This document shows, piece by piece, positions 731 through 41,936 of a DNA stretch of 46,408 nt. Made by a program: the position numbers and the translations under genes. Source of the stretch: a virus (Duplodnaviria > Heunggongvirae > Uroviricota > Caudoviricetes); IMG/VR virus record IMGVR_UViG_2740892219_000006. The stretch is one strand, 5' to 3'. Below the pieces are notes generated by a model, which worked only from the letters and a program-made list of their open reading frames with translations, was not told the DNA's origin and ran no database searches. Numbering within the stretch: position 1 is the first letter of the stretch; each line of letters begins with the position of its first letter.

Positions 731-780
731 TATGATTGTGGGTGTCTGGTTGGAAACTGACCAGATATGGAAACAAAAAG

Positions 781-806: not shown

Positions 807-897
807 GCGACATCCACGGAAAACCAACAACAATATCCATGGGCGCCTCGACAACTCCCATTATACGTTGGTTTTCCGTGGACGCAAGAGCGAACAT

Positions 898-1746
898 ATG
901 GATAGACCAATGCCGTCTCTACGTTCAGCTTACGTTTGTAATTTGTCGCCGGAGTTCCAGCCTCCAAAGCACCATACGCACAAGCTGCCGCTGGTGTTAT
1001 CTGATGCTTTACAGCGCATTAATGGGCGTGATCTTACGTGTGAGGTTGCGTTCTACGTTAATCAACCGTCAGAGCGGAAGCGCCGGATAAACGAGCATCG
1101 TCGTCGGGCGATTAATGCTGTGATCGCTGCGATTTTGCACCATGTAAACATCATTTCTAAGCGGGTTCTGGTTAGTGCTGAGGCGTTGGCTGATTTTTGC
1201 GGCCTGTCTACCGTATCCGAAGCTGGGAACAAGTCTATAACGCGCTGTACAAGGGCGTTGTCGCAACTGAAAGCGTTAGGTTTTATTGATTATGAACGTC
1301 GCTGGGATCGGGTGAATAAACAGTATTGGCCAGCGAAAATAGAGATTCGTGATCAACTGCTGGAAACCGTTGGTATTACTGAACAAGCATGGAGACGTGC
1401 GGTTAGCCAGAAACTTAATTACTTCAATGCGAAGAATAGCGAACGGCTTAAAAAAGCGATAACGGAGGCTGATTATAAGCGTATTGTTATTCAGGAGCAG
1501 ATGGAGAATGTATGGCGTCAGAGGAAGACGGCCAGAGAGATAAAGGCAAAACAGAAAGCAGCGGAGAGAGCTGCGCGTCTTGTTCGGGAAAAGGGAGAGG
1601 CCGAACTTCGTCATCAAATCACTAGAGAGGTTAGCCAGGAATTTGCTGATGGCATGTATCCTGGAGCTGACCTTGCATATTTACGATCCCTCGTTGAGCA
1701 GCGTTATAACAGGTTAAGAAAGACCTGGAAATCACTCCAACATTAA
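898..1746 (+). CDS. repA: Plasmid replication initiator RepA (IncFII RepA1-like)
   Basis: Translation contains SITRCTRALSQLKALGFIDYE and an HRRRAINAV block, recalled as matching IncFII RepA1 conserved regions; start placed at ATG 898 (about 283 aa) rather than the upstream alternative start of the ORF track. Confidence 0.75.
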   Translation: MDRPMPSLRSAYVCNLSPEFQPPKHHTHKLPLVLSDALQRINGRDLTCEVAFYVNQPSERKRRINEHRRRAINAVIAAILHHVNIISKRVLVSAEALADFCGLSTVSEAGNKSITRCTRALSQLKALGFIDYERRWDRVNKQYWPAKIEIRDQLLETVGITEQAWRRAVSQKLNYFNAKNSERLKKAITEADYKRIVIQEQMENVWRQRKTAREIKAKQKAAERAARLVREKGEAELRHQITREVSQEFADGMYPGADLAYLRSLVEQRYNRLRKTWKSLQH

Positions 1747-9512: not shown

Positions 9513-10166
9513 TTACGCGGCAGTAGTCAGAGCCTCAAGCTGGTTGATAATCCCCTGAATAACGTCGTCTGCCTTTTTGCGTGGCGCAACGTATGAGCAC
9601 TCAATGAGGCTTAAGCCCTTATCCTGAGCTTTGCTCAGAGCTGGCTTGTGGGGAATGTACTTATCGACAACAAAGTATGGCGTATTAGCCAGGTACTCTT
9701 GGGCTTCAATATAGTCAGCTTCGTTTTCAGCCGCGCCGGAAAACACCATGCAAATTTTCTTGATTGGTACACCCTTTTTAACGATGCCGTGAGCTGTGTT
9801 AACGGTGGTTTCCAGGTCATCGGTAGAGAATCTGGTTGGCAAAATAACCATATCCAGAAATTCAGAGAGCTTCGGTACTGATTCAGATGCGTAGGCACCG
9901 CCATCGACGATAACCAAGTCGTATACTTCTGATTCGATGATTTTCTGGACTTGTGATGGTGTGCCGCACGGCTGCGCCGCGATTGCTGGTTCGATATTGT
10001 TGGCCATTCTGCGTTGTACCCAACGCGTTACCGTTCCGTTAAGCACATCCATATCGATCAGGCATACATTCCAGCCAGCCTTTGCATAAGCAACTGCTAA
10101 AGCACGGGCAATTGTTGATTTGGTTACGCCGCCTTTTCCGTTGAAAATACCTACAGAGATAGTCAT
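9513..10166 (-). CDS. parA: ParA-family partition ATPase (small type Ib ParA/ParF-like)
   Basis: Deviant Walker A GKGGVTKST near the N-terminus; about 217 aa; start placed at ATG 10166 (GGAG RBS). Confidence 0.8.
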   Translation of the reverse strand: MTISVGIFNGKGGVTKSTIARALAVAYAKAGWNVCLIDMDVLNGTVTRWVQRRMANNIEPAIAAQPCGTPSQVQKIIESEVYDLVIVDGGAYASESVPKLSEFLDMVILPTRFSTDDLETTVNTAHGIVKKGVPIKKICMVFSGAAENEADYIEAQEYLANTPYFVVDKYIPHKPALSKAQDKGLSLIECSYVAPRKKADDVIQGIINQLEALTTAA

Positions 10167-10190
10167 TTGTCGAGACTCCATGTGTTTGAT

Positions 10191-18359: not shown

Positions 18360-18372
18360 AACGAGGATTTCA

Positions 18373-18768
18373 ATGTCAGCAGAACCAATTTCCGGTACGG
18401 CCGTTGCTGCTGGTGGCCTGATGGGTGCCAGCGTTTTTGGTATTGCAACTGGTATTGATTACGGCGTTGTATTCGGGGCATTTGCTGGCGCTGTTTTCTA
18501 TGTTGCTACAGCGGTGAATATTAGCCGTCTCAAGCTGATTGGCTATTTCTTTACATCGTTCATTGTTGGAGTGATTGGAGCGCCGTTAGTTGGCTCATTT
18601 CTTGCCAAATGGACCAGCTACAACGATCGTCCTCTGGATGCGCTTGGTGCGGTTATTGTGGCTGCATTGACCATTAAAATCCTCACGTTCGTAAACAGCC
18701 AGGATCTCGGTAGCATCTTTGGAATGCTTTCCCGCTTACGTGGAGGGGGTTCAAATGGTAAGCAGTGA
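18373..18768 (+). CDS. Holin-like membrane protein
   Basis: 131 aa, several hydrophobic segments, first gene of the lysis cassette. Confidence 0.5.
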   Translation: MSAEPISGTAVAAGGLMGASVFGIATGIDYGVVFGAFAGAVFYVATAVNISRLKLIGYFFTSFIVGVIGAPLVGSFLAKWTSYNDRPLDALGAVIVAALTIKILTFVNSQDLGSIFGMLSRLRGGGSNGKQ

Positions 18769-19051
18769 CCCGTCAGCACTGATTAATGCGGTGCTTTGCA
18801 CAGTAATCGTAATGGCGCTGATGCTTTATCGACGGAAAGACTCCAGGCATCGTCCATTTGTTTCCTTTCTGGCTTATATCTACGTCATTGTATACGCCAA
18901 TGTTCCCTTCCGTTATGTGTTCGGTCTTTATCAAGAATCCCACTGGCTGGTGGTTATTGGAAATCTGATTATCTGCATCGTTGTTCTGTATTTCAGGGGC
19001 AATCTGGCGCGGATAGTTGACGCATTAGGATTTAATCATGACCAAAGATGA
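18755..19051 (+). CDS. Second small membrane protein (holin/antiholin-like)
   Basis: 98 aa from ATG 18755 (GGAGGGGG RBS); two hydrophobic segments. Confidence 0.45.
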   Translation: MVSSDPSALINAVLCTVIVMALMLYRRKDSRHRPFVSFLAYIYVIVYANVPFRYVFGLYQESHWLVVIGNLIICIVVLYFRGNLARIVDALGFNHDQR

Positions 19052-19580
19052 GATTTTTAACAGCATTCTTGGAAAAGAGGGCGGCTATGTGGATCACCCT
19101 GACGACAAGGGAGGCCCAACAAAGTGGGGCATTACTCAGAACACTGCCCGTGCTCATGGATACCGTGGCGATATGCGCGATTTAACCCGCGAACAGGCAC
19201 TAGAAATCCTTGAGGCTGATTACTGGTACGGACCACGCTTTGATCAGGTGGCCGCATTATCCTCTGATATTGCCGCAGAGCTGTGTGATACCGGTGTGAA
19301 TATGGGGCCAACAGTGGCGTCCAAAATGCTTCAACGCTGGCTGAATGTGTTCAATCTGCGTGGGAAGCTGTATCCCGATTTGGATGCAGATGGACGAATC
19401 GGTCCACGTACCATTAATGCGCTGCGTGCTTATCTTGGGAATCGGGGAAAAGACGGCGAACGGGTGATGCTGACGTCGCTGAACTGTACGCAGGGCGAAC
19501 GCTATCTGGAGTTGGCGGAGAAGCGCGAGGCGAATGAGTCGTTTGTCTACGGCTGGATGAAAGAGCGAGTGGTGGTATGA
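19038..19580 (+). CDS. Endolysin (glycoside hydrolase family 108 plus peptidoglycan-binding domain)
   Basis: N-terminal KEGGYVDHPDDKGGPTKWGIT signature recalled for GH108 lysozymes. Confidence 0.8.
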   Translation: MTKDEIFNSILGKEGGYVDHPDDKGGPTKWGITQNTARAHGYRGDMRDLTREQALEILEADYWYGPRFDQVAALSSDIAAELCDTGVNMGPTVASKMLQRWLNVFNLRGKLYPDLDADGRIGPRTINALRAYLGNRGKDGERVMLTSLNCTQGERYLELAEKREANESFVYGWMKERVVV

Positions 19581-19855
19581 CTGGTTTGAAGGCCGTTTTG
19601 TCATTTATTGGCACAATTATATTGGTTGCATTCGGCGCGTTTGGTTTTGGTCGTATGAAGGGGCGAGAAAAGGCCGAAGATGAAGCTGAAAAGCAGCGCA
19701 TTAATGAGAATGCAGCCGCCGTAAAAGCCACTGCGGAGCGGCGTATAGAAGTGACAAAAGAGGTGGGGAATGTACAGCAGAGTGTTAACCATATGGCTGA
19801 TGACGATGTTGATCGCGAGCTGCGGGAGTCGTGGAAGCGTCCCGGTGGTGGTTGA
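19577..19855 (+). CDS. Rz-like inner-membrane spanin
   Basis: 92 aa with N-terminal TM segment and charged coiled-coil region; follows the endolysin. Confidence 0.6.
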   Translation: MTGLKAVLSFIGTIILVAFGAFGFGRMKGREKAEDEAEKQRINENAAAVKATAERRIEVTKEVGNVQQSVNHMADDDVDRELRESWKRPGGG

Positions 19856-19979
19856 TACCGCCTGTGATTGGGTAAAGCCCATCTACCTGACTGATCACGA
19901 CATCGATGTTATGGACCGCCAGACAAAGAAAGATATTCTGGCTCATAACAGGGCATGGGAAATCAACTGCCGAAAGTAA
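19770..19979 (+). CDS. Rz1-like outer-membrane lipoprotein spanin, overlapping Rz in another frame
   Basis: Signal peptide with lipobox LIASC; AGAGGTGGGG RBS; starts inside the Rz reading frame. Confidence 0.55.
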   Translation: MYSRVLTIWLMTMLIASCGSRGSVPVVVDTACDWVKPIYLTDHDIDVMDRQTKKDILAHNRAWEINCRK

Positions 19980-20013
19980 TATATATTTCTATAATTATAT
20001 AAATATATAGTTA
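19977..20013. repeat. AT-rich 22-bp motif copy
   Basis: TCTATAATTATATAAATATATA; same family as the par-region iterons. Confidence 0.45.
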
Positions 20014-20148
20014 CAACATTCTATGCGCTTTTCTCATGAGCGCACGCATCAACCATGTTTGTCTGATATGCCGCCGCGCCCAAAAATCCTGAATTTATTG
20101 GCTGGGATTTTCGTGCGCGGCGCCACACCAGACAAACAGATCAAATAT

Positions 20149-20224
20149 GGCCCCTTAGCTCAGTGGTTAGAGCAGGCGACTCATAATCGCACGGTCATCG
20201 GTTCAAATCCGGTAGGGGCCACCA
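20149..20224 (+). tRNA. tRNA with CAU anticodon (Met or lysidine-dependent Ile2 type), 3-prime CCA encoded
   Basis: Manually folded cloverleaf: 7-bp acceptor GGCCCCT/AGGGGCC, D-stem GCTC/GAGC, anticodon loop CTCATAA, T-stem ATCGG/CCGGT with TTCAAAT loop; the 5-prime half resembles the E. coli Ile2 tRNA from memory. Confidence 0.85.
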
Positions 20225-20532
20225 ATTCACTCTCACACATAAAGATAAGCGCGGTGGAGTTACTTCCTTCGTGCTCATCTTTATGCGTGCCTGGTGCGCA
20301 TTTCGGGCGAACGTGGGGCTAAGTTACAGGCAGGGCCTGTTATCCGCAAAGGGGTAAAAGCTGGAGCGGCGCGGAACTGTAGCCGTGTTACCAAAACAGC
20401 GTTGTCGGGCGATATCCGGCACACAACAGGCAAGGGCATTAATCAGTCTGGTTAGTGCCCTTTTCGTTGTGTTTGCTGTAGAGCTGGCCAGCGTTATGAC
20501 TGCCGGAGATAAGCGCCGGAGGCACAACTAAC

Positions 20533-21120
20533 ATGGAGGCAATTGCATTGTTTAATCTGATTTATGCAGATCCCCCCTGGGAATACAAAGACAAGTGTAA
20601 GGATGGGAATCGTGGAGCTGGTTTTAAGTATCCAACGATGAAAGCTGAGGATATTGCTCGTATTCCTGTCTGGCAGCTTGCTAATCCTGAATCGTGTTTG
20701 TTGGCCATGTGGTGGGTTCCGACTCAGCCAGAAGAAGCGTTGCTGGTGGTGAAAGCATGGGGATTCAGGCTTATGACCATGAAGGGCTTCACATGGAACA
20801 AATGTGGTAGCCGACAACCAGATAAGCTGGTGATGGGGATGGGGCATATGACTCGTGCGAACAGTGAAGATTGCTTGTTTGCGGTAAAAGGCAAACTGCC
20901 GACCCGCCTTGATGCGGGGATCATTCAGTCGTTTACATCGCCTCGTTTGGAGCATTCTCGGAAGCCTGATGTGGTCCGTGACAAGCTGGTAAAGCTGTTA
21001 GGCGATGTTCCTCGTATTGAGCTGTTTGCTCGCGGAGATTTACCTGATGGTTGGCATGGCTGGGGCAACCAGTGCAATGGAGGTATCCAGTTGCATGATG
21101 CTCTCTGGCAAGTGGTATAG
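20533..21120 (+). CDS. MT-A70-family N6-adenine DNA methyltransferase
   Basis: 195 aa with DPPW motif (LIYADPPWEY) near the N-terminus; GGAGG RBS. Confidence 0.8.
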   Translation: MEAIALFNLIYADPPWEYKDKCKDGNRGAGFKYPTMKAEDIARIPVWQLANPESCLLAMWWVPTQPEEALLVVKAWGFRLMTMKGFTWNKCGSRQPDKLVMGMGHMTRANSEDCLFAVKGKLPTRLDAGIIQSFTSPRLEHSRKPDVVRDKLVKLLGDVPRIELFARGDLPDGWHGWGNQCNGGIQLHDALWQVV

Positions 21121-21123
21121 AAT

Positions 21124-26643: not shown

Positions 26644-27234
26644 ATGGCTCTAAAAATCGAATACTTACCAGTCGGTAAGCTGCTCAGATATGCCAAAAAT
26701 TCACGGACTCATTCAGATGAGCAAGTTGAACAGTTGGTGAACAGTATCCGTGAGTTCGGTTTCACTAATCCTGTGCTGATCGATGAAAAGAATGAACTGA
26801 TTGCGGGGCATGGGCGGCTTGCAGCAGCCGAAATTCTGGAAATGGATAAAGTTCCGGCGATTCGGTTGAGTAACCTTTCTGAAAAACAGAAGAAGGCGTA
26901 CAGGATTGCAGATAACAAGCTGGCCTTAAATGCTGGCTGGGATATGCAGCTTCTGGCCGAAGAAGTCAAAGAGTTAATGGATGATGATTTTGATATTGAT
27001 CTGCTTGGGTTTAATGATGCAGAGCTTGACGAAATGTTAAGCGATGAACAGCCGCAGGAAGAAGACGATAATTCTTCCCCTGTTGTTCAAATTAAGTACC
27101 TGGCTATTGATAAAGAACGTATTCCCGCGACGGATATGGAAATTGCATTGTTGCTGGATGTTTATCGTCAGTACCACGACGCGCATGAAACGCATGAGGG
27201 ATTTGTTCAGTATCTTGCTAATGGTTGCAAGTAA
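26644..27234 (+). CDS. ParB-like nuclease domain protein (paralog 2), immediately upstream of terminase
   Basis: NPVLIDEKNELIAGHGRLAAA; high similarity to paralog 1 over the first ~110 residues. Confidence 0.7.
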   Translation: MALKIEYLPVGKLLRYAKNSRTHSDEQVEQLVNSIREFGFTNPVLIDEKNELIAGHGRLAAAEILEMDKVPAIRLSNLSEKQKKAYRIADNKLALNAGWDMQLLAEEVKELMDDDFDIDLLGFNDAELDEMLSDEQPQEEDDNSSPVVQIKYLAIDKERIPATDMEIALLLDVYRQYHDAHETHEGFVQYLANGCK

Positions 27235-27785
27235 TGGCCATCGTCAGTAAGTCAGAGTTTGCCCGCCGGAAAGGTATTTCTCCGGCAATGGTTACGAAGC
27301 TTTGTCGTTCCGGTCGCATTCCAGTGCTGAAAAGCGGCAAGCTGGATTTTGATAAAGCTAGTGCGGCTTATGAAGCGAGCCGACAGGTTGGTCGTGAGGT
27401 ATCTGCTGAAAACGGAAAAAGAGGGCATGGGATATCTTCGGAACAACCAGAGTTACCCGCTGATGATGCCGGATTAGCTGGTGGTACTTCCGGTGTTGCG
27501 GTGCAATTCAACAAGGCTAAGACTGCAGAAAAAATTTATCAGGCAAAGCTGAAACGCCTTGAATTTGAAGAAAAGGAAGGCTCTCTCATCGCTAAAGATG
27601 CGGTCAGGGATGATGCATTTCTGGCAGCTAATGAATTGCGTAGCCGCTTATTTAGTATTGCTCCAAGAGCAGCTCCCCGTTGTGAAGGCAAAACAGCCAG
27701 GGAGATCGAACGCATTATTGAAGACGAGATTAATTTTGCGCTTCAGGCGCTCCAGGAATCCCGATTTATTAAGCAGGAAGAATAA
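27234..27785 (+). CDS. Terminase small subunit (Nu1-like, N-terminal DNA-binding domain)
   Basis: 183 aa directly upstream of the large terminase; start overlaps the upstream stop. Confidence 0.6.
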   Translation: MAIVSKSEFARRKGISPAMVTKLCRSGRIPVLKSGKLDFDKASAAYEASRQVGREVSAENGKRGHGISSEQPELPADDAGLAGGTSGVAVQFNKAKTAEKIYQAKLKRLEFEEKEGSLIAKDAVRDDAFLAANELRSRLFSIAPRAAPRCEGKTAREIERIIEDEINFALQALQESRFIKQEE

Positions 27786-27790
27786 ACCTC

Positions 27791-29647
27791 ATGGGCGAAA
27801 CAGTATGGAGCACCGCTTTTTTCCGTGCGCTTCGCCCTAAATCACGGCTAACTGTTTCCGAATGGGCTGATAAGTATCGTCATGTAGCGCCGGGAACGTC
27901 TCCAGAGCCAGGGCCGTGGCGTACAAGCCGAGTGCCATATTTGCGTGAACCAATGGATGTTATTGGTGACGCTGATACAGAAACAGTAGTGATGCAATGT
28001 AGCTCGCAAATTGGTAAATCCGAATTACAGCTAAATGTTATGGGTTACTTTGCAGATCAGGAGCCATCTCCTCAGTTGATGATTTATCCAACGGTAGAGG
28101 CGGCTGAGGCTTTTTCAAAAGAGCGTATTGATCCGACGTTCAAATATTCCCCTGGTTTGAAACACAAGCTGCATGAAGGGAAAGAGGGGCGCGGTGCAGC
28201 CAAAAAGTCCAGCACGACTATACGTATGAAGCATTACGCTGGTGGATATATAGCACTTGTTGGTGCTAATTCCCCAGCAGGTCTTGCATCTAGGCCAATT
28301 CGAATACTGTTAGCTGATGAGATTGATCGTTACGGTGTGACGCAGGAGGGCGACCCACTAAAACTAGGTATTCAGCGTACTACCAACTTTCATAATCGTA
28401 AGAAAGTTTTTGTTTCTACTCCTGTTTTGGAGGAAACGAGCAAAATCCACAAGTGGTTTAAGCTCTCCGATCAGCGTTACTACCATGTTCCTTGCCCATG
28501 TTGTGGCACCATGCAGGTGATGAAATGGTCGCAAGTCAGATGGGATAAGAGCGATTCAGGTGAGGCGTTACCGGAAACGGCCAGATATGAGTGCTGTGAG
28601 TGCGGCGGGATTATGCGCGGATCTGGTAAACCAGACGTTGATTGGTTGGCGAAGGGGGTATGGATAGCTGAACATACTGGAGTTAAAGGTATTGTTGGTT
28701 TTCATATTAACAGTCTTTACTCCCCGTGGGTTGCATTGTCAGAGCTGGTTGAAGAATTTACGGAAGCAACCAGAAACCGCGATAAAAATGGATTAATGGA
28801 GTTTATTAACCTTAAGCTGGGTGAGCCATGGAAAGAGGATGCTAAAGACGATATCGATCCTGAATACTTGTTGCAACGCAGAATAAGGTTTGAAGAGTTT
28901 TTACCAGATGATGTTTTATTGTTAAGTGCTGGTGTTGACGTACAGGACACGTATTTAGTTTGTGAATTGGTCGGTTGGGGAAAAGGTAAGGAGTCATGGG
29001 GGATAGAATATAAAATATTCCCAGGTGATCCCGCACAAGATGTTGTCTGGAAACAACTTGATGAATACTTACTCCGTAGCTGGTCATTCCGTGACGGTCG
29101 AAAATTACAGATTTCTTCCGTTTGTATTGACTCTGGTGGGCATTTTACGACAGAGGTATATCGCTTTACTAAGCCGAGAGAATCAAGGCGAATATACTCT
29201 ATCAGGGGGCGTGGTGGGGTAGGTTTACCATTTATAGGAAAGCCAAGTAATAATAACCGTGTGGGTGCTATGTTGTTTAATTTGGGGGTTGATGATGGTA
29301 AAGGGACCATCATGGCAAGAATTAAACTACATGATCCTGGTCCTGGTTATATGCATTTCCCATTAGATTCTGACAGAGGATATGATACCGAATACTTTAA
29401 AGGATTATTATCAGAGAAAAAAATATTTGAATATAAAAATGGGCAGACAAAAGAAAAGTGGGTGAAAGTCTACGAGCGTAACGAGCCTCTTGATTGCCGT
29501 AACTATGCAACTGCCGCGATGGAAATTCTGAACCCTAATTTTAACTGGCTTGCCGAACAGGAAATGCGAGGTAATGTGTATGTGCAGAACTCGTCAGGTA
29601 TACGTAGAAGACGCCGTAGAGTTATAAGTAAAGGCGTAACCATATAG
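27791..29647 (+). CDS. Terminase large subunit (lambda GpA family)
   Basis: 618 aa; GpA-like N-terminal ATPase region (IRILLADEIDRYG); gene order as in lambda. Confidence 0.85.
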   Translation: MGETVWSTAFFRALRPKSRLTVSEWADKYRHVAPGTSPEPGPWRTSRVPYLREPMDVIGDADTETVVMQCSSQIGKSELQLNVMGYFADQEPSPQLMIYPTVEAAEAFSKERIDPTFKYSPGLKHKLHEGKEGRGAAKKSSTTIRMKHYAGGYIALVGANSPAGLASRPIRILLADEIDRYGVTQEGDPLKLGIQRTTNFHNRKKVFVSTPVLEETSKIHKWFKLSDQRYYHVPCPCCGTMQVMKWSQVRWDKSDSGEALPETARYECCECGGIMRGSGKPDVDWLAKGVWIAEHTGVKGIVGFHINSLYSPWVALSELVEEFTEATRNRDKNGLMEFINLKLGEPWKEDAKDDIDPEYLLQRRIRFEEFLPDDVLLLSAGVDVQDTYLVCELVGWGKGKESWGIEYKIFPGDPAQDVVWKQLDEYLLRSWSFRDGRKLQISSVCIDSGGHFTTEVYRFTKPRESRRIYSIRGRGGVGLPFIGKPSNNNRVGAMLFNLGVDDGKGTIMARIKLHDPGPGYMHFPLDSDRGYDTEYFKGLLSEKKIFEYKNGQTKEKWVKVYERNEPLDCRNYATAAMEILNPNFNWLAEQEMRGNVYVQNSSGIRRRRRRVISKGVTI

Positions 29648-29658
29648 AGGAAATATAA

Positions 29659-29898
29659 ATGAACAATGAAGCATTTTCTCTGACTGAAGCCAGAGAGATG
29701 TTATCTGTCTGGCGGGAAGCATATCGCGCTATTGCTATTGGCGGTCAGTCATATAAATTTGGTACGCGGCAGTTAACTCGTGCGGATTTATCAGAAGTCA
29801 GAAAAGAGATGGATTACTGGCGTAATGAAGTAGAAAGATTATCAGCAGGTATACGCCGAGGCCCACGAATTAAACGAGTGGTGATAAGAGATTTATGA
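29659..29898 (+). CDS. Head-tail joining protein (gpW-like)
   Basis: 79-aa ORF between terminase and portal, lambda W position. Confidence 0.55.
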   Translation: MNNEAFSLTEAREMLSVWREAYRAIAIGGQSYKFGTRQLTRADLSEVRKEMDYWRNEVERLSAGIRRGPRIKRVVIRDL

Positions 29899-31469
29899 AT
29901 ATTCTTGATCGAGTTATTGCGCCGTTTTCACCTCAGAGGGCATTAAATCGAGCTTTGGCAAGAAAACGGTTAGAAGCACTTGAAGGTATTAATAACCTTG
30001 GATATTCACGTCATGGTGCAAGCACTCATAAAAAATCATTAAGGGGTTGGTTTAGTAAAGCTGGTTCTCCTGATGATGATATTGTTAAAAATATAGATAA
30101 ATTGCGTGAGCGTTCTCGTGATCTCTTCATGGGAAACCCGCTATCTGTTGGCGCAATAAAAACTATCAGGACAAACGTTGTTGGTTCCGGTTTAAAACTA
30201 AATGCGAACATTGATGCCGATTTCTTGGGGATGACGCAGGAAGAAGCGCGAGCATGGGAAAAGCATGTTGAGCGTGAGTTTAGATTATGGGCTGATTCTC
30301 CAAATTGTGATGCATCAAGAATGTGTACTTTTGGACAATTGCAATCATTGGTCCAAATATCTGCGTTAACATCTGGCGATATATTTGCTGCGCTACCAGT
30401 TATTAAGCGTAAGGGTGTTATATATGATTTGTGCGTCTATTTAATTGAAGGTGATCGTGTTTGCAATCCAGAGGATCGTTTTATACCAAATCTTTACGGT
30501 GGCGTAGAGGTTGGTGAATTTAGCGAGCCTGTGGCGTACTGGGTTGCAAAACATCACCCAGCCGGGACTTCTGGTTTTGTAACCCGCAAGTGGGAACGTA
30601 TTCCCGCATATGGGAGTAAAACAGGAAGAAGAAATATTCTGCATGTCATGCAGGATTTTGAAAGGCCTGGGCAACGCCGTGGCGTTCCTGTCCTTGCTCC
30701 TGTAATTGAAGCATTGAAGCAGTTAGGACGATACACCGATGCTGAATTGGTTGCTGCGGTTGTGTCAGGGATGTTTACTGTCTTTATTAAAACAGACGCT
30801 CCTGATGGACCAGTCGGTGAATCGGGTATCCCTCAGTACGAGCAGATCGATAACCATGATGATAACACCCAAGAAATGGGGAATGGCTCCATAGTAAGTT
30901 TGGGTGAAGGTGAGTCGATAGATACAGCAAATCCCGGGCGACCAAATACGGCATTTGATGGTTTTGTTGTCGCCATATGCCGTCAAATTGGGGCTGCTTT
31001 AGAACTCCCTTACGAACTCTTGGTAAAGCATTTTACAGCAAGTTATAGCGCAAGCAGGGCCGCATTACTTGAAGCCTGGAAAATGTTCCGTATGCGACGT
31101 GACTGGATGGTTCAGTCATTTTGCCAACCGATCTATGAGGAATGGTTGGCCGAAGCCGTTGCTAAAGGTCGTGTTATTGCCCCTGGTTTTTTTTATGGGC
31201 CTGAATATCGCGCTGCATGGAGTGGCGCTCAATGGTATGGCCCATCACAAGGCCAATTAGATCCCCTTAAAGAAGTCAAAGCTGCAAAACTGCGTGTTGA
31301 GGAAACATTCTCTACCCGTGAAAAGGAAGCGGCTGAAATGTCAGGTCTTAACTGGGAAGAAACCGCACAAATTTGTGGCAGAGAAGAGAATGCTCGCCGT
31401 GAGTTGGGGCTGATTACGCCTCCTGTTTCTGAGGTAAATGAACAAAATATGGAGACAGATGATGCCTAA
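29895..31469 (+). CDS. Portal protein (lambda gpB family)
   Basis: 524 aa in the position and size of a lambda-family portal. Confidence 0.85.
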   Translation: MNILDRVIAPFSPQRALNRALARKRLEALEGINNLGYSRHGASTHKKSLRGWFSKAGSPDDDIVKNIDKLRERSRDLFMGNPLSVGAIKTIRTNVVGSGLKLNANIDADFLGMTQEEARAWEKHVEREFRLWADSPNCDASRMCTFGQLQSLVQISALTSGDIFAALPVIKRKGVIYDLCVYLIEGDRVCNPEDRFIPNLYGGVEVGEFSEPVAYWVAKHHPAGTSGFVTRKWERIPAYGSKTGRRNILHVMQDFERPGQRRGVPVLAPVIEALKQLGRYTDAELVAAVVSGMFTVFIKTDAPDGPVGESGIPQYEQIDNHDDNTQEMGNGSIVSLGEGESIDTANPGRPNTAFDGFVVAICRQIGAALELPYELLVKHFTASYSASRAALLEAWKMFRMRRDWMVQSFCQPIYEEWLAEAVAKGRVIAPGFFYGPEYRAAWSGAQWYGPSQGQLDPLKEVKAAKLRVEETFSTREKEAAEMSGLNWEETAQICGREENARRELGLITPPVSEVNEQNMETDDA

Positions 31470-32526
31470 TTGGTGGGAAATAAAAAATAGCACGGGTGAA
31501 GATGACTCTCCGGCTGAACTTTTAATCTACGGATATATTGGCGAATTTGATGAGGTTTCTTCTTCTGACATAGTTAATAAATTAAAGGATATATCATCAA
31601 ATGCTATCAACGTAAAAATTAATAGTTATGGTGGTTCTGTTTTTACTGCTCAAGCTATTCTTTCTTCATTAAAACGTCATAAGGCTAATATTACTGTTTA
31701 TATTGATGGTATTGCTGCATCGGCTGCAACCATTATTGCAATGGCAGGTGATAAAGTTGTTATCCCATCTAATGCTATGATGATGATCCATAATCCGTGG
31801 ACATTTGCTGCTGGTGATGCGGATGAACTACGTGATATTGCTGAGATGATGGATAAGATACGAGATAGTATTTTATCTGCATATAAGGAGAAAACAGGGC
31901 TTTCTGAGGATAAATTAATTGAACTAATGGATCAGGAAACATGGCTAAATGCAGAAGAGGCTGTAGAGCTTGGATTTGCTGACGAAGTTGAAAAACCAAT
32001 GCGCTTATCCGCTTCTATAAAGGAAGGGATGCTTTCGCTCAATGGAATAACTTTTGAAGCATCAAGGTTTTCAAAATTACCTGATTCGCTCGCAAAGTTG
32101 CCACAAAATAAAAATGAATTATCTACTGAATTAAATGAACAAAATGAGGACGATGTTGTGACTCTTGATGAATTAAAAAATAAACATCCAGAATTATACA
32201 ATCAGGTTTTTAATGCTGGTAAAGACGAGGGCGTTAAATCAGAACGCGAGCGCATTGAAACAATCGAGAATAGCGTAATTCCAGGTCATGACGACTTGGT
32301 TAAGAATGCAAAATTTAAAACGGGAATTTCTGCGGCTGAACTTGCTTTGGAAATTATGAATGCAGAGCGAGCGCGTAACAAAAACTTTCTTAATCAACGG
32401 CAAGAAGACGCAAATGAGGTGAATGATTCAGTTGATGTTAATCAACCAGAAAACAACGGCGATAAACAAGCTGAAGTAGTAAAAAATGTTATTGGGTCAG
32501 TATTTAAAAACCGCGATAAAAATTAA
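31462..32526 (+). CDS. Head maturation protease (ClpP/S49-like) with C-terminal scaffold region
   Basis: ClpP/SppA-like core (NSYGGSVFTAQAI...IDGIAASAATIIAMAGDK); start uncertain (31438, 31462 or 31465). Confidence 0.8.
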   Translation: MPNWWEIKNSTGEDDSPAELLIYGYIGEFDEVSSSDIVNKLKDISSNAINVKINSYGGSVFTAQAILSSLKRHKANITVYIDGIAASAATIIAMAGDKVVIPSNAMMMIHNPWTFAAGDADELRDIAEMMDKIRDSILSAYKEKTGLSEDKLIELMDQETWLNAEEAVELGFADEVEKPMRLSASIKEGMLSLNGITFEASRFSKLPDSLAKLPQNKNELSTELNEQNEDDVVTLDELKNKHPELYNQVFNAGKDEGVKSERERIETIENSVIPGHDDLVKNAKFKTGISAAELALEIMNAERARNKNFLNQRQEDANEVNDSVDVNQPENNGDKQAEVVKNVIGSVFKNRDKN

Positions 32527-32535
32527 GGTGAGTTT

Positions 32536-32919
32536 ATGCGAGAGTCTTTTTCATTTGAACCAGATAATCTGATTATTTCTGGTGGTATGCCAGCAATTAC
32601 AACAAGTATTAAACTTGCCAGCGGTAAAGTAAATCGAGGTGAGTTGCTTGCTTTTGTCAGTATTGATCAGACAACAAATGTTGTCACTGTGGCACCAATA
32701 AATCTCTCTGGTGAGGGGGTGGCAAAAGAACCATATTGTATCGCTCAACATAGTATTGATGCGACTGATTCAGCGCAAGTTGGAACAGCATGGCTGACCG
32801 GAATGTTCAATGCACATGCGGTTATCCTTCCTGAATCAGCAAAGATTGCCGATGTATATCTGGCTTGCCGGAAGGTTGGGATATTCCTTAATACCGCACA
32901 ACAAAATCCATCTGCATAA
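32536..32919 (+). CDS. Head decoration protein (gpD-like)
   Basis: 127-aa ORF between protease and major capsid, lambda D position. Confidence 0.6.
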   Translation: MRESFSFEPDNLIISGGMPAITTSIKLASGKVNRGELLAFVSIDQTTNVVTVAPINLSGEGVAKEPYCIAQHSIDATDSAQVGTAWLTGMFNAHAVILPESAKIADVYLACRKVGIFLNTAQQNPSA

Positions 32920-32939
32920 TATAAAGAGGTCGTATTTTT

Positions 32940-33983
32940 ATGCCGAATATTGATATTTTTGAACGACGTACAATGCTTGAGCCTGTTATTCAGAATTTCA
33001 AGGCTCGTCGTTTTCTTCTTCGTACCTTTTTTCCTGGTGTTCAGACCTTTAATACAAAGAAAGTTGATCTGGATTTTGTTCGCGGTGGCCGTACTATGGC
33101 TCCGTTTGTTGGTAAAGGTTTTGGGTCAAAAACCGTTGAGCGACGCGGCTTTGTAACGAGAACTCTGGAGCCACCACTTGTTGCACCTGATTTGGTAACA
33201 ACAGCCGAGCTGCTTTTAAACAGGCTTCCGGGTGAGAATATTTACAACGCAAAATCGCCAGCAGAACGAGCCGCCGAGCAATTAGGTAAAGATTTGCTTG
33301 AGCTTGATGAAATGGTTAACCGCCGTGAAGAATGGATGTGTGCACAAGTCTTGTTTACGGGGCAGGTTGATATTGTTGGTGAAGGAGTGGATGACACAGT
33401 TTATTTTTGGCCTGAAGAGGAAGGAGATAAACCATATCTTGAACTGACAGGTGATGATTTATGGAGTGCAGCAAAATCTGATCCGTTGGTCAATGTTCGC
33501 AACTGGAAACGTCGGGTATCACTAACTTCAGGTTTTACACCTCGTGTTGCCGTAATGGGCGCAAAAGTTGTTGATGCCTTCGTTAAAAATGAAGCAGTAA
33601 CTAAATATCTTGATAATCGCCGAAAAGAGCTTGGGTATATTGAGCCTAAGGAGTTAGAAGAAGGCGTAACTCATTATGGCAATCTTGAAGGTGTCGATTT
33701 TTATGGTTACGACGAACTTATTCGCAATGATAAAACAGGAAAACCAGAACCATTAGTACCGGAAGATAAGATCCTCTTTGGCTCTCCTGGTCGAGGAACG
33801 ATGCTGTATGGTGCTGTAGAGCTTGTAGATGACGCCGAAAAGACTCTAACGATTGTTGAGTCGCCACGAGTTCCAGACACCTGGGTAACTCGTAAGCCGG
33901 CTGGCCGTTATGTTGCCATGAAGTCATCTCCACTGCCTAATCCAGGTGTGGCTGATGCCTATCTGGTGGCTAAGGTGGTTTAA
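32940..33983 (+). CDS. Major capsid protein (lambda gpE family)
   Basis: 347 aa; C-terminal region aligns by eye with lambda E (VPDTWVTRKP...). Confidence 0.85.
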   Translation: MPNIDIFERRTMLEPVIQNFKARRFLLRTFFPGVQTFNTKKVDLDFVRGGRTMAPFVGKGFGSKTVERRGFVTRTLEPPLVAPDLVTTAELLLNRLPGENIYNAKSPAERAAEQLGKDLLELDEMVNRREEWMCAQVLFTGQVDIVGEGVDDTVYFWPEEEGDKPYLELTGDDLWSAAKSDPLVNVRNWKRRVSLTSGFTPRVAVMGAKVVDAFVKNEAVTKYLDNRRKELGYIEPKELEEGVTHYGNLEGVDFYGYDELIRNDKTGKPEPLVPEDKILFGSPGRGTMLYGAVELVDDAEKTLTIVESPRVPDTWVTRKPAGRYVAMKSSPLPNPGVADAYLVAKVV

Positions 33984-34376
33984 ATGGCCAGACTGATTAA
34001 AAATATTGATACGATAAGCCACGGCTCGCTAAAAGCGGGCCGTTTGCTTAATGGGCTAATGGATAACTCCAGAATTGCTGAACTGATTGCGTCAGGACAT
34101 GCTATTGCCACCGAAGAGGATGGGGATTTGGCATCGGCCGGGGGCTATGATGCTGCTAAGTTAGCTTTTGAGCATGGATACGCATCTGCTGTTAATGATG
34201 CTGTGGACGCGGGGTTGATTACGCGAACGGAGGCGGGTAGCTGTGTATTCGAGGTTGAGTTTGAGGATGATGGCGGCAATGAGGAAACGGTTGCTGATGA
34301 TTCATCTGAATCTGTAGCTACTTCTGATACCAGTAATGCGAAAAAATCAACGCAAAAAAAAGGTAATAAGAAGTAA
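33984..34376 (+). CDS. Hypothetical head-associated protein (FI-like position, acidic C-terminus)
   Basis: Position after the capsid gene; no recognised domain. Confidence 0.4.
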   Translation: MARLIKNIDTISHGSLKAGRLLNGLMDNSRIAELIASGHAIATEEDGDLASAGGYDAAKLAFEHGYASAVNDAVDAGLITRTEAGSCVFEVEFEDDGGNEETVADDSSESVATSDTSNAKKSTQKKGNKK

Positions 34377-34720
34377 TGAACTCCTTCAAAGAGGTTATAG
34401 CGCAAGATATTTCTGCAATATTCCTCAATGAAAAAGAGTTTGCCGATACATATAACATAGACGGCAAGGATATCCTTGCCGTTATTGATACAGACCTTAT
34501 TCATGAGCGGAATAAACGCTCATATGCTGAGTTTGCAGAGGGAATAAATCAGGGGCAAATAATATTATTTGTTTCAAGAAAAGATTTTCCTGTTCTCCCA
34601 GTCAAAGACCAGTCAATGAAAATCAACGGTAAAAATTATATTGTTGATGAAGTATCAGATAATGTTGGTGTATTGGAAATAACTCTCACTGTTAATACTA
34701 ACAGAGGAATGCCGATTTGA
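34376..34720 (+). CDS. Putative head completion / head-tail connector protein
   Basis: 114-aa ORF, synteny only. Confidence 0.4.
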   Translation: MNSFKEVIAQDISAIFLNEKEFADTYNIDGKDILAVIDTDLIHERNKRSYAEFAEGINQGQIILFVSRKDFPVLPVKDQSMKINGKNYIVDEVSDNVGVLEITLTVNTNRGMPI

Positions 34721-35202
34721 TTAATCTTTTGATAGATGCAATAAAAAATCGGTTGGAACATGAGGTTTTCCATGATTTATTAGTGCAGGGGCCTCCTTAT
34801 GATGAAACAGACAGCGATATTAAATTGTTTGTTCCAACAATATTTAAAGGGTACTTGCCTCCTAAATCACAACCATCTCCAGATAAACCGCCAGAATTTC
34901 CTCATGTGATTATCAGGCCCACGGAAGGAGGAATGCAGCCTGAAACGGATGAAGTTAAGGTTAAGTTTCTTCTAGGTGGTTTTTGTGAGGACCATACTGG
35001 ATATGAATGGGTAATGGCTCTTCTTGAAAGGATGATGTTTCATTTTCAGGAGAAGCCTTTACTTGAAGAGAAATTTCTTTTTCAGGGCGATATCAGATGG
35101 CGAATGTTTGATGATCAACCGTATCCATATTGGATAACGGAAGCAACTGGAACGTGGCTAGTATTAAAGCCTCAGAATATTCAGTCTCAGGAGTTTATCT
35201 AA
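34717..35202 (+). CDS. Putative tail completion / neck protein
   Basis: 161-aa ORF, synteny only; TTG start. Confidence 0.4.
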   Translation: MINLLIDAIKNRLEHEVFHDLLVQGPPYDETDSDIKLFVPTIFKGYLPPKSQPSPDKPPEFPHVIIRPTEGGMQPETDEVKVKFLLGGFCEDHTGYEWVMALLERMMFHFQEKPLLEEKFLFQGDIRWRMFDDQPYPYWITEATGTWLVLKPQNIQSQEFI

Positions 35203-35493
35203 ATGGCTAATAAGAAAAGTAGTAAAGAAGATATAGAAAAGAAGGAAGATGTTGCTCAAACATTTGTATATATAGGACCAACAATTCCTCAACTCTCAAT
35301 TTTGAAGCATAAACTATTTAAGAATGGCTTATCTCCAGAGTGTAAAAAATTAATATCACATATTCCTGGTGCAAAGTGTTTGTTTGTGGCAACCAGTGAT
35401 TTTGCAGATGCAGAGAAAAGACTTTCTGATAAAACCAGTGTCGAGTATGTAATGTACTCTAGAGTTTCTTCTTCTATCATGGAGATTAAATAA
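35203..35493 (+). CDS. Hypothetical protein (96 aa)
   Basis: ORF immediately before the sheath gene. Confidence 0.4.
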   Translation: MANKKSSKEDIEKKEDVAQTFVYIGPTIPQLSILKHKLFKNGLSPECKKLISHIPGAKCLFVATSDFADAEKRLSDKTSVEYVMYSRVSSSIMEIK

Positions 35494-36956
35494 TGGGATA
35501 TCGCCACGGTATTTATATATCTGAGCTGGCTACATCTATAACTCCTCCAGTGCAAGTTAGTGCTGGGTTGATTGTCGCATTTGGTACGGCTCCTGTTAAT
35601 CAGTTAGAAGATCCAGCCTCAGCGGTAAATAAACCTATCATTGCTTATACATACGCAGAGGCCGTATCTAAAATAGGATATAGCACAAACTTCGAGAAAT
35701 ATACTTTAAGCGAAGTAATTAAAGTCGCATTTGGAATATATGGTGTTGCGCCAGTTGTATTTATCAATGTGCTTGATCCAGCAAAGCATAAGAAAGACGT
35801 TACTGATGAGTTAGTAAAACTTTCTGGCGGGAAAGGTACGCTCTCTAACGATGGTGTCTTATATAAATCTGTTGTTGTGAAAAAAGCAGATGGTGATTCG
35901 CCTGGGTTAACGGTTGATACCGATTATGTGCTGGCGCTGGATGATAATGGCTATACGGTCATTACAGCTATTAGCGGAGGAAAAATTACCGAAAAAGACG
36001 CTACTCTTAAGGTTAGTTATACGCATCTTGATCCCGGTGCCGTAACTAAAAATGACATTATCGGTGGTGTGGATTCAAACACTAAAGCCAATACAGGGCT
36101 TGAGTTACTGTCAGATGTGTATCCCCGCTTCAAGTTAGTTCCTGGACAAGTGATTGCACCTGGATTTAGTTCTGATAGTGAAGTTGGTCAGCTAATGGCG
36201 GCTAAAGCCGCGCTGATTAGTGAATTGTTCAAAGCAGAAGCTATAACGGATGCGCCGACCGATAAATCTACTATCAGTGATTACTCGGCTGTTCCTGAAT
36301 GGAAACAGAACAATAATCACATGGCCGCTAACCAGACAGTGTGCTGGCCGATGGTGAAACTTGGTGACAATATTTACCATCACTCAACCCATTTAGCGGC
36401 CGCAACATGCTTGCTGGATAGTCAGTATGGTGATATTCCATCACGTTCTCCGTCAAATATAAAACTACAGATGGACGGTGCTGTACGTAAAGATGGCAGT
36501 GAAGTATGGCTTAACATTAGCCAGGCAAACTACTTAAATGGGCAGGGGATTGTAACAAGCCTTAATTTTGATGGTTGGAAATCATGGGGAAACCGTAATG
36601 CTATTTATCCAACATCTACAGACCCCAAAGACGCATTTCGTGTTTGCCGACGTATGTTTAACTGGGTGGGTAATACGTTAATTCTTTCGCATTGGTCAAA
36701 AATAGACAATCCTGCAAACCGTCGATTAATTGAATCGATTGTTACAAGTGCGAATATTTGGCTTAACGGCCTCACAGGTAATCAGGATATTGCAGGTGGT
36801 GTTGTTACCTTTGATCAGTCTGAAAACACGATTACGTCATTGATGGACGGGATTGTTAAATTCCATGTAAAAATGACACCATTCTCACCTGCCAGAGATA
36901 TAGAGTTCGTCATGGAATATAATCCTGATTATCTGCTGAACTTGTTTTCTGAATAA
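35493..36956 (+). CDS. Contractile tail sheath protein
   Basis: 487 aa, in the position and size expected for a myovirus tail sheath. Confidence 0.85.
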   Translation: MGYRHGIYISELATSITPPVQVSAGLIVAFGTAPVNQLEDPASAVNKPIIAYTYAEAVSKIGYSTNFEKYTLSEVIKVAFGIYGVAPVVFINVLDPAKHKKDVTDELVKLSGGKGTLSNDGVLYKSVVVKKADGDSPGLTVDTDYVLALDDNGYTVITAISGGKITEKDATLKVSYTHLDPGAVTKNDIIGGVDSNTKANTGLELLSDVYPRFKLVPGQVIAPGFSSDSEVGQLMAAKAALISELFKAEAITDAPTDKSTISDYSAVPEWKQNNNHMAANQTVCWPMVKLGDNIYHHSTHLAAATCLLDSQYGDIPSRSPSNIKLQMDGAVRKDGSEVWLNISQANYLNGQGIVTSLNFDGWKSWGNRNAIYPTSTDPKDAFRVCRRMFNWVGNTLILSHWSKIDNPANRRLIESIVTSANIWLNGLTGNQDIAGGVVTFDQSENTITSLMDGIVKFHVKMTPFSPARDIEFVMEYNPDYLLNLFSE

Positions 36957-36972
36957 ATGATAGGAGGTTGCT

Positions 36973-37494
36973 TTGAGCAATCAAATTCCTGAGAGACTTA
37001 TTAACTTTACAGTATACGGTGAGGGAAACCGTATTATCGGTGTTGCTGACGCAAAGCTGCCATCAATCGAGATGATGACAGAGACAGTTAGTGGAGCAGG
37101 TATTGCTGGAGAGCTTGAGAGCGGAACGCTGGGGCATTTCAAACCAATGACCGTCTCTCTTAAATGGCGAACCCTAACCTCTGCTGGTACAAAATTATTT
37201 CTATCCTCATCGCATCAGGTAGATTTTCGTGGTAGCCAGCAGGTTTATGATGCCGGAACAGGAAAATATAAAACGGTTCCCATTCGGGCTTCAATGAAGC
37301 TAAACCCTAAAAAACTGGATTTAGGTTCGCTACAGGTGGCAAAGGCTACTGATTCAGAGAATGAATTTGAAGTTCTCTATATCAAATTATTTATTGATGG
37401 AAAAGAAGTCCTGGAAATTGATAAATTGAACTTTATTTGTATCTTCGATGGTGAAGATATATTAAAAAGCGTTCGTGATGATTTAGGTTTATAA
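36973..37494 (+). CDS. Tail tube protein
   Basis: 173 aa following the sheath; TTG start after AGGAGG. Confidence 0.8.
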   Translation: MSNQIPERLINFTVYGEGNRIIGVADAKLPSIEMMTETVSGAGIAGELESGTLGHFKPMTVSLKWRTLTSAGTKLFLSSSHQVDFRGSQQVYDAGTGKYKTVPIRASMKLNPKKLDLGSLQVAKATDSENEFEVLYIKLFIDGKEVLEIDKLNFICIFDGEDILKSVRDDLGL

Positions 37495-37503
37495 GGTGAC
37501 AAA

Positions 37504-37785
37504 ATGGAAACCGTTAAATTAAGTAAAGAGTATCGTTTTGAAGACTTCGAGCCGGTGACTGAACTCAACCTTGATTTAGACAACCTAAAAGGCAGCGATA
37601 TTTTAGAAGTATCGGACTTACTGCAATCTCAAGGGCATGTTACAGTTCAAACATCACTTGATCATAAAGTCCACGTTGCTCTGGCTGCTCGCTGTATTGG
37701 CCGTCCGATAGAGTATCTGAATGGATTGCCAGCGAAAGACTTTGTTAAAGTTTGCCAAAAGGTACAGAATTTTTTGCTCTCGTAG
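37504..37785 (+). CDS. Tail assembly chaperone (short form)
   Basis: 93-aa ORF upstream of the tape measure gene. Confidence 0.65.
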   Translation: METVKLSKEYRFEDFEPVTELNLDLDNLKGSDILEVSDLLQSQGHVTVQTSLDHKVHVALAARCIGRPIEYLNGLPAKDFVKVCQKVQNFLLS

Positions 37786-37934
37786 GTTTTGATGAGCAAA
37801 AACCTATTGATAAGCAAATAATGAGGGCCGCGAGTTCTCTATCTCAATCATCTCAATCAACACCTATATCCTACTGGCTTTCTCTTCGGTTGAGGCGAAT
37901 TGTCGCATGGATTGATGTGTTTAATGAGGATTAA
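37504..37934 (+). CDS. Tail assembly chaperone, -1 frameshift extended product
   Basis: Slippery heptamer T TTT TTG at 37770-37776 in the zero frame; the -1 frame stays open to 37934. Confidence 0.6.
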
Positions 37935-37939
37935 TACTA

Positions 37940-41934: not shown

Positions 41935-41936
41935 TT

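Follow-up and report, generated by a model that had tools for sequence, protein, structure and literature searches.

The window analysed here, i.e. the whole stretch of 46,408 nucleotides of viral DNA, contains a single tRNA gene as called by ARAGORN, which lies at 20149-20224 on the plus strand and carries the anticodon CAT at position 34. Its sequence, GGCCCCTTAGCTCAGTGGTTAGAGCAGGCGACTCATAATCGCACGGTCATCGGTTCAAATCCGGTAGGGGCCACCA, terminates in ACCA, so that the CCA end is encoded. In Rfam the tRNA family (RF00005) covers 20149-20221 and scores 67 bits, the gathering score being 29 (E = 1.5e-12). The molecule folds into a cloverleaf with four arms at -28.3 kcal/mol, next to an unconstrained optimum of -28.4 kcal/mol, and its fold stands out from those of shuffled sequences (z = -3.1); with this structure and a score above threshold it is a member of RF00005. 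A first-pass annotation of the same DNA had described a well-folded 76-nt tRNA with encoded CCA and the anticodon CAU at this place, to be given up if tRNA predictors failed to call it, and both ARAGORN and Rfam call the gene at 20149-20224. The features of its surroundings are the following:

18326-18353: strong terminator, 20 nt before the holin gene (terminator scan)
18373..19979, plus strand: lysis cassette with two holin-family genes, a GH108 endolysin, an Rz-like spanin and an embedded ORF
19974..20021, no strand assigned: AT-rich palindrome around TATAATTATA, immediately following the stop codon of the spanin gene
20053..20140, plus strand: long imperfect hairpin with 34-nt arms, 85% complementary (inverted repeat I1 and fold of the region)
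20149..20224, plus strand: tRNA-Ile2 gene, CAU anticodon, 76 nt, CCA encoded (ARAGORN and Rfam)
20234..20289, plus strand: second hairpin with 25-nt arms, 80% complementary, in a variable slot (inverted repeat I6 and fold)
20326..20430, plus strand: conserved non-coding block downstream of the tRNA
20432..20470, plus strand: terminator-like hairpin, a 14-pair stem followed by the T-run TTCGTTGTGT (terminator scan; strong terminator at 20432-20462)
20533..21120, plus strand: MT-A70 family DNA methyltransferase (Pfam PF05063, E = 4e-23; PGAP name of the homologue in the relative L001)

The lysis cassette was identified by Pfam (PF16931 for the holin, PF05838 and PF09374), by the PHROG assignment of the Rz-like spanin and by the PGAP annotation of L001. 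Pfam and PHROG thus bear out the earlier statement that the tRNA is situated between a lysis cassette and an MT-A70 methylase. The gap in which it lies is 553 nt long and holds no plausible coding sequence.

The nature of the element that carries this gene follows from features elsewhere in the window:

31-585: serine recombinase of 184 aa (Resolvase and HTH_7), adjoining tail-fibre genes
736..1746, plus strand: IncFII-type RepA replication initiator (Pfam PF02387, E = 9e-43; the L001 homologue is annotated repA)
9513..10181, minus strand: ParA partition ATPase (Pfam CbiA/ParA/MipZ; PGAP name 'ParA family protein')
27225..45033, plus strand: packaging, head, tail and baseplate module (gene names from L001)

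Besides the holins, GH108 endolysin and spanin of the lysis cassette, the virion genes include terminase, portal, capsid, sheath, tube, tape measure and baseplate, and the window further contains a c4-type antisense RNA, an isrK-like RNA adjoining an antirepressor-like gene (ORF6N and Rha) and a CI-like repressor. RepA and ParA therefore share one replicon with full sets of virion and lysis genes, as is characteristic of a phage-plasmid. Its close relatives are circular Escherichia plasmids of 47-52 kb, one of them being the 48.5 kb plasmid carried by E. coli ATCC 25922, and the phage relatives with genome records are the Yersinia phages vB_YpM_39, 41 and 44. Among candidates from the literature for naming the family, pSLy3 was rejected, being a ~100 kb member of the SSU5 supergroup and hence of a different family, and the paper on vB_YpM_HQ103 makes no mention of a tRNA. 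The element is a ~48 kb RepA/ParA phage-plasmid with a myovirus tail and not an integrated prophage. No tyrosine integrase is encoded in the window, where all ORFs of at least 300 aa are RepA, Ant, DUF3560, ParB-like or virion proteins, and the sole recombinase is the 184-aa serine recombinase, whose size is typical of small DNA invertases of the Cin/Gin class and which we accordingly take not to be an integrase. The first-pass annotation had rightly remarked on the missing integrase near the tRNA, but it overlooked the cause, namely that the element is inherited as a plasmid.

The CAU anticodon is compatible with two kinds of elongator tRNA, and the first-pass annotation had left the choice open between a tRNA-Met that reads AUG and a tRNA-Ile2 that reads AUA after conversion of C34 to lysidine. 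Comparison with the genes of E. coli K-12 speaks for the second: the tRNA is 89.5% identical to ileX, 74.0% to metT/metU and 61% to the initiator tRNA-Met. It equals ileX at positions 1-42 and 66-76, and the eight differences are confined to positions 43, 44 and 59 and to the T-stem (49-51 and 63/65). Within the T-stem both sides have changed at 49:65 (G-C to A-U) and at 51:63 (U-A to C-G), while 50:64 is now a U-G wobble pair. The anticodon loop (CTCATAA at positions 32-38) is that of K-12 ileX and includes A37 and A38. The pairs C4-G69 and C5-G68 are those on which E. coli TilS depends, whereas the U4-A69 and A5-U68 pairs of tRNA-Met block this enzyme (PMC2500205; PMC11947777); the acceptor stem GGCCCCU/AGGGGCC provides both favourable pairs. 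Likewise complete is the bacterial IleRS identity set of A73, C4-G69, U12-A23, C29-G41, A35, U36, A37 and A38 (PMC9976931), which moreover is invariant in an alignment of nine variants described below. The D-loop elements of tRNA-Ile1 (G16, U20 and U21) are not mappable one to one, and the D-arm is the D-arm of ileX.

By contrast, the elements of elongator tRNA-Met were looked for in the tRNA and none is present. Neither U4-A69 and A5-U68, recognized by MetRS and unfavourable for TilS, nor any of the determinants C27-G43, C30-G40 and G44 required by the tRNA-Met acetylase TmcA (PMC2500205; PMC11947777) occurs; the corresponding positions read C4-G69, C5-G68, G27-A43, G30-C40 and C44. A methionine tRNA could be argued from the CAU anticodon itself, from the label 'tRNA-Met' that ARAGORN and the records of the Yersinia phages vB_YpM_39, 41 and 44 attach to the gene, and from the expectation that an unmodified fraction accepts methionine (PMC9976931). 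However, the ARAGORN label is set by the anticodon alone, and the program likewise labels phage P1 trnI and Stx-phage ileZ 'Met', while copies on E. coli plasmids that are 100% identical to our gene are named tRNA-Ile by PGAP in RefSeq. In view of sequence identity and determinants we reject the elongator tRNA-Met, which we hold to be highly improbable. Judged by its sequence, the gene is an AUA-type tRNA-Ile2 and not a tRNA-Met, and C34 is expected to be converted to lysidine by the host TilS. One position deserves mention in this respect: the top pair of the anticodon stem, 27:43, is G-A (G-U in ileX) and lies near the TilS contact region, and substitutions in the anticodon stem have been reported to impair EcTilS (PMC11947777).

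The nearest known sequence is trnI of phage P1 (NC_005856.1, 70933-71008), identical at 72 of 76 positions (94.7%) and described in the P1 record as 'tRNA-ile2 (CAT) gene; 89 pct identical to ileX'. The two differ by the four substitutions C6U, A26U, U50C and A59G, but have in common A43, C44 and a T-stem of the type ACCGG/AUCGG, by all of which they depart from host ileX. Their contexts are different: in P1, trnI is found between tciC and ban together with tRNA-Asn and tRNA-Thr, whereas the tRNA of the window stands alone between lysis genes and the MT-A70 methylase, and the upstream flank common to both extends over 5 nt only. The host genes ileX and ileY resemble the phage gene in acceptor stem, D-arm, anticodon loop and the pairs 28:42 to 31:39, in their TilS and IleRS determinants, in length and in the encoded CCA; ileX, however, is chromosomal and has G-U at 27:43 and U44 in place of G-A and C44, position 59 being A in our tRNA. 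More distant is ileZ of Stx phages (84.2% identical), which also has a CAU anticodon, a non-Watson-Crick pair at 27:43 and a location in late-transcribed DNA. These lambdoid phages integrate and carry ileZ in an ileZ-argN-argO cluster between Q and stx, together with two tRNA-Arg (AGA/AGG and CGA), while the element in the window has no tRNA-Arg despite a strong enrichment of AGA and AGG codons. A query with the 76-nt gene matches 1,129 phage records, the weaker matches including other tRNAs.

To define the lineage, a signature of 28 nt over the anticodon arm, A43/C44 and the T-stem was scanned in 185,579 species-representative genomes. It was found in one of them, on a contig that is P1; a chromosomal donor of the variant was sought in the same scan and did not appear. 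As sampled, the lineage is therefore confined to E. coli phage-plasmids, and the tRNA was not recently copied from a chromosomal gene among those sampled. P1 and the element in the window are both E. coli phage-plasmids without an integrase, and the two unrelated families to which they belong, P1 and the ~48 kb family, have a separate tRNA-Ile2 lineage in common. Phage-borne tRNA-Ile2 genes are already known from P1 (trnI) and from Stx phages (ileZ), and identical copies of the present gene are annotated in RefSeq. The feature is therefore of an ordinary, already described kind which leaves current understanding unchanged; the first-pass annotation had missed this prior knowledge, both the tRNA-Ile copies in RefSeq and P1 trnI as the closest relative.

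The same comparisons bear on the possibility that the gene is a host tRNA, or its 3' part, left at the junction of an integrated prophage. Host ileX does serve as an integration site, as in the Klebsiella phage ST13-OXA48phi12.1, in whose record host dnaG-rpoD-mug-ileX adjoins P2-like tail genes. An attachment-site tRNA would have an integrase nearby and would border on host DNA, and a duplicate of its 3' segment would lie at the far end of the element; none of this is seen here. Instead, the gene is of full length and has the lysis genes of the phage on one side and its methylase on the other. Its location is the same in the circular plasmids as in the phage records, and its 3' half occurs only once in the window. 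The eight differences from host ileX and the restriction of the signature to the P1 contig among 185,579 species genomes likewise oppose a host origin at a junction, as does the replication of the element as a plasmid. Since the tRNA is full length between phage genes, also wherever it occurs in relatives, and its 3' half is not duplicated, we give the attachment-site reading virtually no credence. The first-pass annotation had already thought an attachment-site remnant unlikely, unless the flanking sequence proved to be the end of a host tRNA gene at an integration junction; phage genes on both sides settle the matter in its favour.

Within the family the tRNA is strongly conserved where it occurs. 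The full 553-nt intergenic block with the tRNA was found in 58 PLSDB plasmids, and the family terminase, at a coverage of at least 80%, also in 58. At least 25 loci from IMG/VR and metagenomes have the same architecture with zero to one substitution in the tRNA, located at the unpaired positions 26, 44 and 59 or as a wobble change at 13:22. In an alignment of nine variants, which includes ileX, Klebsiella ileX, P1 trnI and ileZ, 96.3% of the pair cells are standard, compensatory changes are seen at 6:67, 49:65 and 51:63, and non-standard combinations are restricted to 27:43. Such a distribution of substitutions is that expected of a working tRNA.

Three relatives, L007, L011 and L028, do not possess the tRNA. 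L007 is a divergent relative from Salmonella (CP053324.1) whose terminase is 80% identical to that of the window. All three retain the palindrome, the first hairpin, the conserved block and the terminator, while the stretch that corresponds to the tRNA is occupied by unrelated sequence. Since the surroundings are kept and the tRNA stretch is replaced, the tRNA occupies a variable slot within a conserved non-coding region. A decayed tRNA in this slot was considered as well, but its sole indication was a loose MAFFT alignment, and neither ARAGORN nor Rfam (E <= 5) detected a tRNA in L007 or L011.

The AT-rich motif differs from that of L007 by one substitution in about 40 nt, although its flanks are ~75% identical, and TATAATTATA, for which 0.1 occurrences would be expected in the window, is present six times, in every case between genes; the palindrome may be an operator, a promoter or a partition-type protein-binding site ahead of the tRNA leader. 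The 88-nt upstream hairpin ends 8 nt before the tRNA and is present with or without it. This hairpin is nearly invariant in all of the at least 25 tRNA-bearing loci, displays three compensatory pairs between the window and L007, and has hybrid arms with three mismatches in L011. The stretch matching the second hairpin, on the other hand, is much longer in L007 and L011 owing to large indels. In the conserved block, six differences in ~105 nt separate the window from L007 (~94% identical, compared with ~75% in neighbouring genes), and these are not spaced in multiples of three. Rfam returned no match for the block (20326..20430). The stem of the terminator at 20432..20470 differs in sequence in L007, with complementarity kept. 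Known RNA families were also sought in the flanking structure, where the candidates obtained were sub-threshold matches to miRNA precursors, attributable to the long hairpin, together with a rydB match of low score (27 bits, the gathering score being 50), and all were rejected.

A consensus scan between the spanin gene and the tRNA revealed no sigma-70 promoter, and a search with PHROGs for an antiterminator or late activator among the neighbouring ORFs yielded only families of unknown function. Because the tRNA follows the lysis genes and precedes a terminator, and has no consensus promoter, it is probably transcribed together with the late (lysis) genes, or else from a promoter of non-consensus type within the AT-rich motif. 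The 553-nt region as a whole is strongly structured (z = -8.5 against shuffles), and the position of the tRNA between two hairpins, with a terminator downstream, could also be read in another way: RNase P and RNase E would cut at the tRNA and so detach the lysis mRNA from a structured leader downstream, with decoding as a secondary function. Such a processing signal, however, would hardly need the full set of Ile2 identity elements. The flanking hairpin, block and terminator, moreover, persist in the relatives that have no tRNA and are therefore not dependent on it. We regard this explanation as very unlikely and return to tRNA-Ile2 as a decoding molecule.

If the tRNA reads AUA, the use of this codon in the element is of interest. 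Over all genes of the window (67 ORFs) AUA amounts to 15.8 per 1000 codons and 24.9% of isoleucine codons. The comparison of late genes with the host, which the first-pass annotation had suggested, gives 21.1 per 1000 in the packaging-to-baseplate module, whereas 42 annotated genes from 50 kb of K-12, taken as the host sample, reach 2.4 per 1000. Expressed as a share of isoleucine codons, AUA accounts for 32% in the packaging-to-baseplate module, 17.4% in the other genes of the window and 4.2% in the host sample. The ratios of observed to expected AUA, with the expectation computed from third-position composition at four-fold sites, are 0.94, 0.56 and 0.21, respectively. Late genes thus show no avoidance of AUA. 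In the remaining modules it is used at 7.7 (early), 5.8 (lysis) and 14.5 (plasmid and immunity) per 1000 codons. Tandem AUA-AUA codons occur four times in the morphogenesis module, baseplate and tail genes being among the carriers.

The link between this codon usage and the tRNA is nevertheless looser than the first-pass annotation implied when it suggested that AT-rich late genes may benefit from extra AUA decoding. The late genes are indeed rich in AT and in AUA. Yet relative to the K-12 sample AGA and AGG are enriched 8.8-fold and 9-fold, compared with 6.5-fold for AUA, and no tRNA-Arg is carried. Furthermore, the major capsid gene, expected to be the most highly expressed, has no AUA among its 347 codons. 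Finally, L007, although it has no tRNA, uses AUA at 0.71-0.79 of the compositional expectation, i.e. freely, from which it follows that the tRNA is not required for such usage. Orthologous morphogenesis genes contain 54 AUA codons in L007 and 101 in the window (Fisher p = 2e-4), but this is a single comparison confounded by composition, the GC3 of these orthologues being 0.446 in L007 and 0.325 in the window.

Taken together, AUA supplementation is the best-supported role, since the virion genes use 21 AUA per 1000 codons and the host sample 2.4, and this support is correlative. We consider it likely that the gene encodes, jointly, a functional tRNA-Ile2, of a P1-type lineage and residing on a phage-plasmid, that supplies extra AUA decoding for the late genes. 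Its transcript would be processed by the host RNase P and by 3' trimming, and the host TilS would turn C34 into lysidine, whereupon the host IleRS would charge the molecule with isoleucine and the tRNA would read AUA instead of AUG. Host tRNA-Ile2 is scarce, and for this reason additional AUA capacity could aid the translation of the AUA-rich packaging, head, tail and baseplate genes. We infer the expression of the tRNA, its timing, the lysidine modification and the fitness benefit from these observations. The tRNA is best seen as a helper that accompanies, and perhaps permits, very AT-rich late genes, and not as a necessity.

Other roles have to be weighed against this one. The tRNA could be a gene of lysogenic conversion, providing an extra ileX-type copy for AT-rich acquired genes of the host, or a near-neutral passenger kept since its capture. 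Its residence in a variable slot that holds unrelated sequence in relatives, the viability of these tRNA-less relatives, the AUA usage of the plasmid and immunity genes (14.5 per 1000, as given above) and the single chromosomal copy in some hosts, e.g. ATCC 25922, are all consistent with such a role. On the other hand, the sequence and the cloverleaf have been strictly maintained in more than 80 copies, with changes in loops and wobble pairs only, and the gene is placed among late genes beside a motif that resembles an operator, with no constitutive promoter in evidence. We therefore rate this alternative as unlikely, though not negligible.

A further proposal concerns defence. The replacement of host tRNAs that are cleaved or depleted has been suggested for phage tRNAs in general (PMC10264068), and the present tRNA could analogously be a spare for host tRNA-Ile2 cut by an anticodon nuclease or lost during host shut-off. 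In favour of this, the lineage departs from the host gene at positions 43 and 44 as well as in the T-arm. Its 7-nt anticodon loop and the pairs 28:42 to 31:39, however, are the same as in the host, so that the escape mutations described for the loop are absent, and the element is temperate and has one tRNA only. To our knowledge no nuclease targets tRNA-Ile2. As the anticodon loop is identical to that of the host, we do not favour counter-defence and consider it quite improbable, and we retain the supply of extra AUA decoding as the preferred reading.

By analogy with bldA of Streptomyces, the tRNA could act as a timing device instead of a plain supplement: if produced upon induction only, from a conserved structured leader that a repressor or partition protein would bind, it could control when the baseplate and tail genes, rich in AUA, are efficiently translated. 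This idea is speculative and we attach a low probability to it. If it were true, the variant with A43, C44 and the altered T-arm, which P1 has as well, might suit rapid handling by TilS and IleRS or resistance to a host factor.

The value of the present result lies mainly in annotation, as ARAGORN and several GenBank phage records give as tRNA-Met what is a tRNA-Ile2 of the AUA-reading type. The corrected label alters the reading of codon-usage and host-adaptation analyses of these phage-plasmids. Moreover, the family comprises members with and without the tRNA that are otherwise collinear, and thereby constitutes a natural system for testing whether phage tRNAs pay for the use of rare codons.

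Upstream and downstream of the variable stretch that holds the tRNA-Ile2 gene (the tRNA slot), the non-coding DNA carries a hairpin and a conserved block, which were compared with the tRNA-less Salmonella plasmid L007, with two further tRNA-less relatives (L011, an IMG/VR locus, and L028) and with the metagenome locus L039:

20053-20140: 88-nt hairpin, directly 5' of the tRNA
40131-40503 of L007, 7990-8660 of L011, and in L028: the slot in tRNA-less relatives
20326-20430, 40533-40640 of L007, 8690-8800 of L011: conserved non-coding block

The hairpin is kept both with and without the tRNA. Between the window and L007 it differs by three fully compensatory pair changes, while in L011 the arms are mixed and mismatched at three positions, and in L039 the 5' arm is replaced. 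In the tRNA-less relatives, unrelated non-coding sequence of approximately 370-880 nt fills the slot; L011 and L028 have extra insertions, and neither a convincing ORF nor an Rfam match was found in the slot sequence of L007, L011 or L028. Just 3' of the slot, the conserved block reaches ~94% identity among relatives, compared with ~75% in the flanking genes. Its substitutions are not spaced in threes, it has no match in Rfam, and it may represent an unrecognised small RNA or serve as a leader for the methylase gene and the late genes.

A 'tRNA-Met' is also recorded in L008 (Klebsiella phage ST13-OXA48phi12.1, MK422453.1 2115-10190), where the host genes dnaG, rpoD, mug and ileX adjoin P2-like tail genes. 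The 'phage' of this record is a prophage whose in silico excision took in the ileX integration junction; the gene labelled 'tRNA-Met' there is the tRNA-Ile2 of the host.

A terminator ahead of the lysis genes and three RNAs elsewhere in the window were likewise recognised:

18326-18353: strong intrinsic terminator, an 11-pair stem followed by T9, within 17986-18373
7350-7438 (-): C4 antisense RNA (Rfam, 72 bits)
7463-7535 (-): isrK-like RNA (Rfam, 67 bits)
8702-8998 (+): full-length ryfA-family RNA (Rfam, 143 bits)

A conserved non-coding stretch of ~340 nt precedes the terminator, and from the terminator's end to the start codon of the holin gene there are just 20 nt; this layout is similar to the PR'-qut-tR' arrangement of lambda. 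For the lysis genes to be expressed, transcription would have to read through the terminator or be antiterminated, and among the genes near 17986-18373 none was recognised as encoding an antiterminator. The C4 and isrK-like RNAs lie just upstream of an antirepressor-like gene (5967-7112, with ORF6N and Rha domains), an arrangement which we take to be the immI layout of phages P1 and P7.

A different kind of switch is suggested at the window ends:

31-585 (+): serine recombinase of 184 aa (Resolvase and HTH_7)

This gene adjoins opposite-strand tail-fibre and fibre-assembly ORFs (other end 45267-46408), and together they are read as a candidate Cin/Gin-type invertible host-range segment, which may have caused the sequence break at the window ends.

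Finally, the perfect palindrome TATAATTATA occurs six times in the window (0.1 expected), always in intergenic positions:

4320-4441, 14015-14135, 21112-21234, also 9501, 10266 and 19990: TATAATTATA repeat sites
15241-15262 and 15290-15309: similar AT-rich repeats
~115-nt unit, in order: AT-rich palindrome TATATAATTATAGATTTATATA, -35, 17-nt spacer, -10, leader, ATG

Half of the TATAATTATA copies are part of this repeated unit, each example of which heads a separate plus-strand operon and combines promoter-like elements (-35 TTTACA or TTTGCA, 17-nt spacer, -10 TAAGGT or TATAGT) with a conserved 5' leader whose 3' end, GGAGATAACCCG, is followed by ATG. Positions of the palindrome motif coincide with edges of homology blocks common to relatives (4330/4331, 14021, 19980 and 21237), and two copies flank parA. 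The operators of the CI-like repressor itself (11440-11615, ACCAC-N5-GTGGT) look unlike these repeats. Scattered partition sites have been described for phage N15, and the palindromes could be such sites or, alternatively, operators of a second regulator.
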